DNA of 62,665 nucleotides, filler included, from Collodictyon triciliatum (Eukaryota), in assembly GCA_043381765.1 (NCBI GenBank). It is 40 parts of 40 records of this genome, joined end to end, with 100 filler letters (N's around TTAATTAATTAA, not from the genome) between each part and the next. Parts side by side here need not be neighbours in the genome. Positions count along the whole stretch, not along the records: positions 33,695 to 35,127 come from JBHJMP010011093.1; 39 more parts are not named here. The stretch is one strand, 5' to 3'. This document shows, one piece after another, positions 34,174 to 34,925 of this stretch. Made by a program: the position numbers and the translations under genes. The notes beneath the pieces were generated by a model that made no database searches, was not told the origin of the DNA, and was given only the letters and a program-made list of their open reading frames with translations. The number at the start of each line of letters is the position of its first letter. The first letter of the stretch is position 1.

Positions 34174-34925
34174 AAATCAAACAGTTCCTTAAGATGAGAG
34201 TATTGCGGAAGCTGTTAAAAAGGAAGAGTTACCAAAGTAAAAAAAAAAAAAAGCCATCTCCAAGAATCTTGAGATACCGGAACAATATAAAGAATGGGCT
34301 AAAACGCATTTGCATCATATCATTTACAGCGATATTGTAAATAGTATCGAATATGGTGTCAAATTCAATCCAAATAAGTACATTCCATGTCTGAATTACA
34401 TGAATCGCATTTTTTAGGACATTGGAGCCAAACTGTTTAAACCAATCTCTATAAGAACTGACAATATACCATGTCATATTACTCCAGATACTGCATGGTT
34501 GATAGATGTATTAGTATCAACTGGAAAAACATCATTAAAGAAGAATATATCAGGATGCAAAGAGACCCTATGGGATAAACTCTTTGAAATGAAGAAGAGA
34601 GTTTTTTATCAGAGACTAGAATTTTAAATACATGATACAAACAGACGCCTTGGCGGTGTTTTTATTGTTTAAAAAGAAAGGTATTTCAAATTCAAAAAAC
34701 CAAGAAAATGTTTATATAGATGAACTTTCTGAAGAGCAGTTATCTTTATTAGCGACAAAAAATAAATAAATAGTTGGAGTGGACGCAGGCAAGTTTAATT
34801 TGGTTTACATGGTGGATGATACAGGCAAGAAATTACGTTACACGGCACACCAAAGAAGACATGATAGCAAATCTCTTGAAATCGTAAAATACTCTTGCGC
34901 AAGAAAGAAAAGCACAACGCCTTAT
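34174..34925 (+). pseudogene. Fanzor1-like RNA-guided nuclease relic (central region through RuvC-I and bridge helix)
   Basis: Manual translation: VKFNPNKYIPCLNYMNRIF*DIGAKLFKPISIRTDNIPCHITPDTAWLID...TLWDKLF.../FKYMIQTDALAVFLLF...YIDELSEEQL...*IVGVDAGKFNLVYMVDDTGKKLRYTAHQRRHDSK/RNRKILL. RuvC-I Asp codon at 34782-34784. Stops and frameshifts present. Confidence 0.85.

Follow-up and report, generated by a model that had tools for sequence, protein, structure and literature searches.

Positions 34174–34989 of the window, the 62,665-nt stretch of Collodictyon triciliatum DNA (assembly GCA_043381765.1) analyzed here, are best read, with a probability that we put at roughly 0.93, as a non-functional relic of a Fanzor1 gene belonging to a family of mobile elements that this genome carries in multiple copies. 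Within the TnpB/Cas12 superfamily, Fanzor1 proteins form the branch found in eukaryotes and giant viruses. The recognizable coding part of the relic, located by tblastn, profile searches, and hhalign, is a pseudogene fragment on the plus strand at 34174–34927. It corresponds to approximately residues 159–405 of a 648 amino acid relative, P0004 (38% of that protein), and comprises part of the WED/REC region followed by the first RuvC segment.

Results

The Fragment Is Spread over Three Frames and Matches Fanzor1 Profiles

The fragment can be read only by passing through stop codons and changing frame. The first frame, from 34175 to 34612, is interrupted by TAA at 34190, TAA at 34238, and TAG at 34415. 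It includes the ORF 34241–34417, which carries the NPNKYIPCLNYMN piece and ends at the TAG at 34415–34417, and the ORF 34418–34627, which continues past this stop in an unchanged frame with the GAKLFKPISIRTDNIPCHITPDT piece. The frame changes at 34613. The second frame, 34614–34877, has stops at TAG 34617 and TAA 34767 and contains the ORF 34620–34769, with FKYMIQTDALAVFLLF and YIDELSEEQL; beyond the TAA at 34767–34769 the same frame is kept by the ORF 34770–34943, with IVGVDAGKFNLVYMVD and LRYTAHQRRHDSK. A third frame, from 34880, encodes NRKILLRKKEKHNAL, which resembles the segment following QRRxES in the relatives, and ends at the TAG at 34925–34927. All of these ORFs lie on the plus strand, and the peptides quoted in the original prediction are all present on that strand, in the order given there, across stops and frameshifts.

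A profile HMM of 36 relatives was compared with all 2316 stop-to-stop ORFs of the window of at least 15 amino acids. Exactly six of the 2316 match at E ≤ 1.4e-6, the next best ORF having an E value of 1.3. Four of these six are pieces of the fragment (E values of 2.3e-16, 3e-15, 1.3e-9, and 1.4e-9), and they are colinear over profile positions 169–397. When two read-through pieces were aligned by hhalign with A1, the alignment of relatives described below, they scored 99.8% (E = 1.3e-29) and 99.7% (E = 1.3e-25). The match of the fragment to Fanzor1 relatives is well above chance.

In a word-indexed search, the best longer relatives of the RuvC-I piece are P0003 (291 amino acids, E = 1.6e-21), P0004 (E = 1.3e-20), and P0005 (494 amino acids, E = 5.5e-11), which share 47%–61% identity with it and all carry the label PF26935. 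HMMER, run exhaustively over 1.84 billion representatives, returned 138 proteins at E ≤ 1e-3, many of them 550–800 amino acids long with the matching region at residues ∼300–450. In the reverse direction, a tblastn search of the window with P0004 yields two colinear matches, 34175–34612 (48% of 146 amino acids) and 34593–34874 (57% of 101 amino acids), with a joint E value of 1e-60.

Among solved structures, P0004 matches three Fanzor1 proteins, GtFz1 of Guillardia theta (E = 2.1e-28), PpFz1 of Parasitella parasitica (E = 2.7e-24), and SpuFz1 of Spizellomyces punctatus (E = 3.7e-23); the myoglobins that follow, at E = 0.38 and worse, are noise. The A1 profile recovers the same three at E values of 1.3e-82 to 2.6e-97, over nearly their full length, and its sole further matches are to LaTranC (1.6e-4 and 2.1e-4), over the zinc-ribbon/RuvC-III end. 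P0001 has no match among solved structures at E ≤ 10. Compared directly with SpuFz1, the window peptide scores poorly (E = 0.12); the Fanzor1 assignment rests on transitive and profile evidence. Within that evidence, Fanzor1 proteins are the only ones to which the stitched peptide aligns, in profile as well as in pairwise searches, in agreement with the proposal of a Fanzor1-like RuvC-I relic, and the significant, colinear similarity to bona fide Fanzor1 proteins marks the fragment as Fanzor1 by descent. A motif order had also been put forward as typical of Fanzor1; it equals the A1 consensus, in which IxTDGxGCSLLF is followed by IVGxDPGK and then by NKLRYTxxQRRxES.

We also considered a Fanzor2 or prokaryotic TnpB identity. 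It was rejected, significant E values being found for Fanzor1 chains only: no chain named Fanzor2 or TnpB occurs among the solved structures matched by P0004 at E ≤ 1 or by the profile at E ≤ 0.01.

Pfam, searched in a set without PF26935, gave nothing above cut-off for the two read-through pieces, and on the relatives it gave only a sub-threshold Cas12f1-like TNB match in P0005 (20.9 bits versus a cut-off of 26.3). PF26935 (DUF8286) is known here from precomputed labels alone. The original prediction went too far in suggesting a possibly undescribed family: the N-terminal half of the protein is already represented by PF26935, and the clade lies inside Fanzor1, with intact relatives numbering in the hundreds among giant-virus contigs.

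The RuvC-I Aspartate Is Retained and the Downstream Catalytic Parts Are Missing

The codon at the position of the RuvC-I catalytic aspartate is GAC at 34782–34784 on the plus strand. Its product, D55 of the window peptide, falls on D777 of chain 8gkh_P in a gap-free alignment. This chain reads D777-P-N779, from which follows an MBP-tag offset of 394 and the equivalence of D777 with D383 of SpuFz1; N779 then corresponds to N385, consistent with the same offset. According to the structural reports, the catalytic residues of SpuFz1 are D383, E541, and D606, with N385 as a further metal ligand (PMC10432273, PMC11423790). A second, independent placement by hhalign sets the window aspartate on D364 of P0004. 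The original prediction had made its case depend on this residue, and both placements put it on the Fanzor1 RuvC-I aspartate. The aspartate sits in the GxDPG strand, as in functional Fanzor1 proteins; in the window copy the adjacent invariant proline is changed to alanine.

In A1, D364, E555, and D604 are invariant and C562, C565, and C587 nearly so (P0004 numbering); E555 is the RuvC-II glutamate, D604 the RuvC-III aspartate, and the three cysteines are those of the zinc ribbon. A1 comprises 36 of 50 long relatives, mostly those that pass our own motif patterns, and the invariance of its catalytic residues is in part a product of this selection.

For the RuvC-II glutamate, none of the 2316 window ORFs gives a match past profile position 397 at E < 1, and tblastn and the profile HMM detect neither the zinc ribbon (CxxC...CxxC, the TNB domain) nor the RuvC-III Asp/Asn in the window. 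Rfam returns no match relevant to an omegaRNA on the contig of the fragment. The 3′ motif of the viral relatives, which may not be the omegaRNA of the window family, does not occur in the window even when up to three mismatches are allowed. The RuvC-II glutamate, zinc ribbon, RuvC-III aspartate, and 3′ omegaRNA are absent because everything past residue ∼405 is missing. By profile, motif, and Rfam, the earlier statement that no RuvC-II, zinc finger, RuvC-III, or omegaRNA is visible here is borne out.

Five Stops and Two Frameshifts Interrupt the Window Copy

The fragment has, in total, five in-frame stops, two frameshifts, and both ends missing. We compared 33900–35127 with contigs of at least 80% likeness from four public sequencing runs (X1, X2, X3, and X17); these data are contigs, and their depth is not copy number. 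X17 is without cover over 33900–34145 and there are gaps elsewhere in several runs, which we did not take as evidence.

The TAA at 34190–34192 is GAA in a second copy of the gene found elsewhere in the window, and the TAA at 34238–34240, at the head of an A-run, is TAA in that copy too. The TAG at 34415–34417 is GAG in most other copies, the T>G difference accounting for 170.5 of 194.8 depth in X17, 12.1 of 16 in X2, 2 of 2 in X3, and 0 of 2 in X1. In the shifted frame, the TAG at 34617–34619 is TAC in other copies (G>C at 34619: X17, 186 of 226.3; X2, all 17.6 of 17.6). The fifth stop, the TAA at 34767–34769, directly precedes the RuvC-I strand, at a place where relatives have lysine or no residue.

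At the first frameshift, 34611–34613, two bases are absent relative to part of the other copies, and the frame switches between 34612 and 34614; an “AA” insertion behind 34610 is carried by 85.2 of 184.3 depth in X17 (five contigs) and 4.2 of 8.8 in X2. At the second, 34878–34879, one base is absent relative to other copies, with an “A” insertion behind 34878 in 2.13 of 2.13 depth in X1, 6 of 10.2 in X2, and 94.9 of 222.2 in X17. At both 34610 and 34878 the extra bases are lacking from about half of the depth, so these frameshifts may be common to a subfamily.

Substitutions add to this damage. In the window copy Pro365, invariant in the relatives, is alanine (GCA, 34785–34787), the invariant Glu391 of QRRxE is aspartate, and the nearly invariant Gly314 of TDG is alanine (P0004 numbering). 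The uninterrupted ORF of a functional Fanzor1 gene is absent from this copy, and the stops, frameshifts, substitutions, and missing catalytic parts leave it inert today. The original prediction rightly called the copy dead, and its stitching of frames stands; its account of lesions and context was incomplete, having missed the TAA at 34190, the TAA at 34238, the frameshift at ∼34878, the second copy at 41359–41868 on the minus strand, and the make-up of the window as a concatenation of 40 contigs.

The Fragment Lies on a Short Unplaced Contig

The window consists of 40 unplaced contigs of 1427–2853 bp, ordered by size and joined by 39 linkers of 100 bases in which N runs flank TTAATTAATTAA. 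This size-ordered chain is the layout of an unplaced-contig bin, and the adjacency of contigs within it is without meaning. The fragment lies on one such unplaced contig, 33695–35127 (1433 bp), and because the window is a chain of ∼1.4-kb unplaced contigs, its true context is these 1433 bp only. The contig opens with a (CAAA)n microsatellite; microsatellites are found at the starts or ends of many window contigs. GC content along the window is 29%–41%. On the neighboring contig, an open frame at 32376–32750 on the plus strand may encode an MPN/JAB-domain protein similar to Rpn8 or eIF3f.

At the DNA level, homology to the second copy sets in exactly at 34174, where the loose ends of X1 and X17 contigs run upstream into family sequence absent from the window. 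The limits first proposed for the fragment, 34174 and 34925, coincide with the onset of this homology and with the stop of the last matching frame. Downstream, a tail at 34928–34989 (plus strand) is shared with other copies and has no profile match. An X1 contig (record 4) extends to 34956 and an X2 contig (record 20) to 34971, loose ends occur at 34985 and 34990, on both sides, and family sequence ends at ∼34990. This tail could correspond to an intron or to a variable linker; there is no joint at 34928 among the run-contig joints listed.

The remaining 3′ flank, 34990–35127, as delimited by run contigs and a repeat search, is unrelated to the family and contains an imperfect hairpin at 35024–35089, with 31-nt arms that are 74% complementary. 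It occurs at ∼99% identity in X1 (record 5) and X2 (record 21), and X17 contigs match it too. The flank could be another repeat or small element. The two Rfam matches on the contig that fall on this hairpin are miRNA-like and sub-threshold (E = 0.33 and 0.7). The repeat search of the contig, which found this one imperfect hairpin, found no terminal repeats around the fragment. None of the contigs among the 25 of 190 records listed bridges 34173/34174 or 34989/34990. Instead of real breakpoints, both truncations could be chimeric joins made in assembling a short contig rich in repeats.

A Second Window Fragment and Many Run Contigs Point to a Multi-copy Family

A second, diverged and broken Fanzor1 copy lies on a different contig, at 41359–41868 on the minus strand, and was identified by tblastn, profile, and DNA matches. 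It covers residues 1–175 of P0004 (tblastn 41800–41378, E = 3e-35) and matches profile positions 22–154 at E values of 2.8e-10 and 1.4e-6. ACG stands at the place of the start ATG of its relatives (41868–41866), and four stops and one or more frameshifts interrupt it. The two fragments overlap in DNA over 72 nt (34174–34245 against 41429–41359) at only 87.5% identity, so they derive from different, diverged copies. The contig of the second copy, 41359–42790, breaks at an A-run that is also present in the first fragment.

In X17, 150 contigs fall on the fragment, of which eight are at least 99% identical to it, 38 are at 95%–99%, 49 at 90%–95%, and 55 under 90%. Together with the second window copy, these contigs at 80%–99% argue for a multi-copy family whose members differ in age. 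The contigs of at least 99% identity, and the sense codons found at the places of the window stops, make it conceivable that the organism, or a very close relative in X17, carries intact, recently active Fanzor1 copies of the P0003/P0004 clade, a suggestion we offer only tentatively and regard as the less probable outcome.

Giant-Virus Contigs Carry Many Intact Relatives

For the scan of viral contigs we used a seven-sequence alignment, A2, A1 being too diverse. In IMG/VR, 430 stretches match two conserved A2 peptide patterns and 372 of them encode relatives. The 80 that were kept share 38%–47% identity with P0004 over residues ∼1–648; many viral relatives sit on GVMAG contigs, of up to 289 kb, and all 21 that were translated (of the 80) are open, stop-free genes. 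A scan of viral contigs with P0004 as the only query yielded 0 relatives among 36 pattern matches, and a P0004 scan of metagenome contigs yielded one distant locus, L001, at 21% identity.

We built a quick, unrooted maximum-likelihood tree, with SH-aLRT support values, from 87 rows and 260 columns taken only from the part covered by the window. The window copy, P0004, and P0003 form a clade of their own (98), apart from all 21 viral rows. Five viral contigs and P0028 form a clade (99) that adjoins this trio; the join is weak (SH-aLRT 82) and is drawn open. The protein-language-model clusters nearest to P0004 are DUF8286 clusters that are 92%–100% viral, mostly Nucleocytoviricota, and those nearest to P0003 are DUF8286 clusters that are mostly eukaryotic (Mucoromycota).

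Across the five viral loci nearest to the window clade, L002–L006, compared from ∼150 nt before to ∼50 nt after the stop codon, the 3′ end of the ORF is conserved in DNA, and this conservation extends ∼47 nt past the stop and then collapses at one column. RNAalifold of four of these loci gives 41 pairs, 12 of them with compensatory changes. The fold of these four sequences hints that the conserved 3′ region is a candidate omegaRNA scaffold together with the right end of the element.

Discussion

The relic that we describe keeps the middle third of the gene, from the WED/REC end through the first RuvC strand with its catalytic aspartate codon, with nothing left of what precedes residue ∼159 or follows residue ∼405. 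Judging from the family, the intact ancestor was probably a protein of ∼600–650 amino acids. Its guide would have been an omegaRNA transcribed from the 3′ end of the element itself, and through a single RuvC site it would have cleaved double-stranded DNA flanked by a TAM; its likely role would have been to help the host transposon persist. For intact Fanzor1 systems, the literature describes an omegaRNA overlapping the ORF at its 3′ end and stopping at the right end of the element, TAM recognition, and cleavage of double-stranded DNA by a single RuvC site (PMC10432273, PMC11423790, PMC10530073).

A different route to the same kind of relic would be viral endogenization, the fragment being what remains of an integrated giant-virus (Nucleocytoviricota) genome. 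The largely viral clusters around P0004, the 372 relatives among the 430 IMG/VR matches, many of them on GVMAG contigs, and the viral clade that adjoins that of the window all speak for this origin. However, that adjacency is the weakly supported join of the tree, the clade of the window copy with P0004 and P0003 stands apart from the 21 viral rows, and the clusters nearest to the P0003-like fragment are mostly eukaryotic. Many copies at 80%–99% in one run suggest repeated transposition and not a single insertion. A profile search of ORFs found no viral gene in the flanks of the fragment, on a 1.4-kb contig that is too short to decide the matter. We consider an endogenized virus unlikely.

The lesions themselves invite two other readings. 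The gene could be intact in the organism, with the stops and frameshifts introduced by faulty sequencing or assembly of an unplaced contig of low quality. The contig is indeed short, unplaced, and repeat-rich, one of the stops (34238) lies at an A-run, and an X3 contig that is 98% identical over 34337–34487 has GAG and not TAG at 34415. Errors would nevertheless have to account for five stops, two frameshifts, the loss of both ends, and the substitution of invariant residues, and the second window copy is broken too; moreover, two X1 contigs match 34266–34554, the TAG at 34415 included, with 0 differences, although X1 may be assembly-dependent. This makes an intact gene hidden by errors very improbable. 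Still less credible is a nuclear genetic code that reads TAA and TAG as sense, under which the “stops” would be no lesions. Each of the five interruptions is TAA or TAG, with no TGA among them, and at two of the stop positions the relatives have glutamate or tyrosine. However, the two frameshifts and both truncations persist under any code, and the GAG and TAC of other copies at these places are single-step neighbors of TAG, as in ordinary nonsense mutations.

The fragment marks this genome as host of a multi-copy Fanzor1 family. Published surveys already document Fanzor1 genes, their decayed copies, and their occurrence in giant viruses (PMC10432273, PMC10530073), and in itself the fragment is of little weight; it is a possible pointer to intact copies in the same genome. 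Should such a copy exist, the set of compact RNA-guided nucleases from eukaryotes would grow by one uncharacterized enzyme with an omegaRNA and a TAM of its own, and an intact lineage would offer a case for tracing the exchange of Fanzor genes between giant viruses and their hosts. It was a motif-level reading of raw sequence that caught this pseudogene, which ORF-based annotation would miss.

Comparison with Known Fanzor Systems

Two surveys report Fanzor1 in fungi, protists, arthropods, plants, and giant viruses; they also describe introns, partial copies, and “ghost” elements, as well as associations with many transposon superfamilies (PMC10432273, PMC10530073). Fanzor2 and the TnpB proteins of IS200/IS605 and IS607 elements have the RuvC fold and the RNA-guided mechanism in common with Fanzor1 (PMC11423790, PMC10530073).

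Among solved structures, SpuFz1 (8gkh), GtFz1 (9cer), and PpFz1 (9cf0) are alike in that P0004 and the 36-relative profile match them over nearly their whole length, and they and the relatives of the window copy have a common order of WED/REC, RuvC-I Asp, RuvC-II Glu, zinc ribbon, and RuvC-III Asp. PpFz1 has an extra insertion domain, according to its structural report (PMC11423790). In contrast to these proteins, the window copy is without two of the three catalytic residues and is interrupted by stops and frameshifts. The giant-virus Fanzor1 genes of IMG/VR have the DUF8286 (PF26935) label in common with the relatives of the window copy; they are intact and have a conserved, apparently structured 3′ end, whereas the window copy has neither. 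A parallel to its state of decay is found in Spizellomyces punctatus, for which one report describes partial Fanzor copies and “ghost” elements that lack an ORF, alongside complete ones (PMC10432273). Unlike those elements, the window copies are known from 1.4-kb contigs alone, without definable element ends or inverted repeats; like them, they are decayed remains of a Fanzor family.
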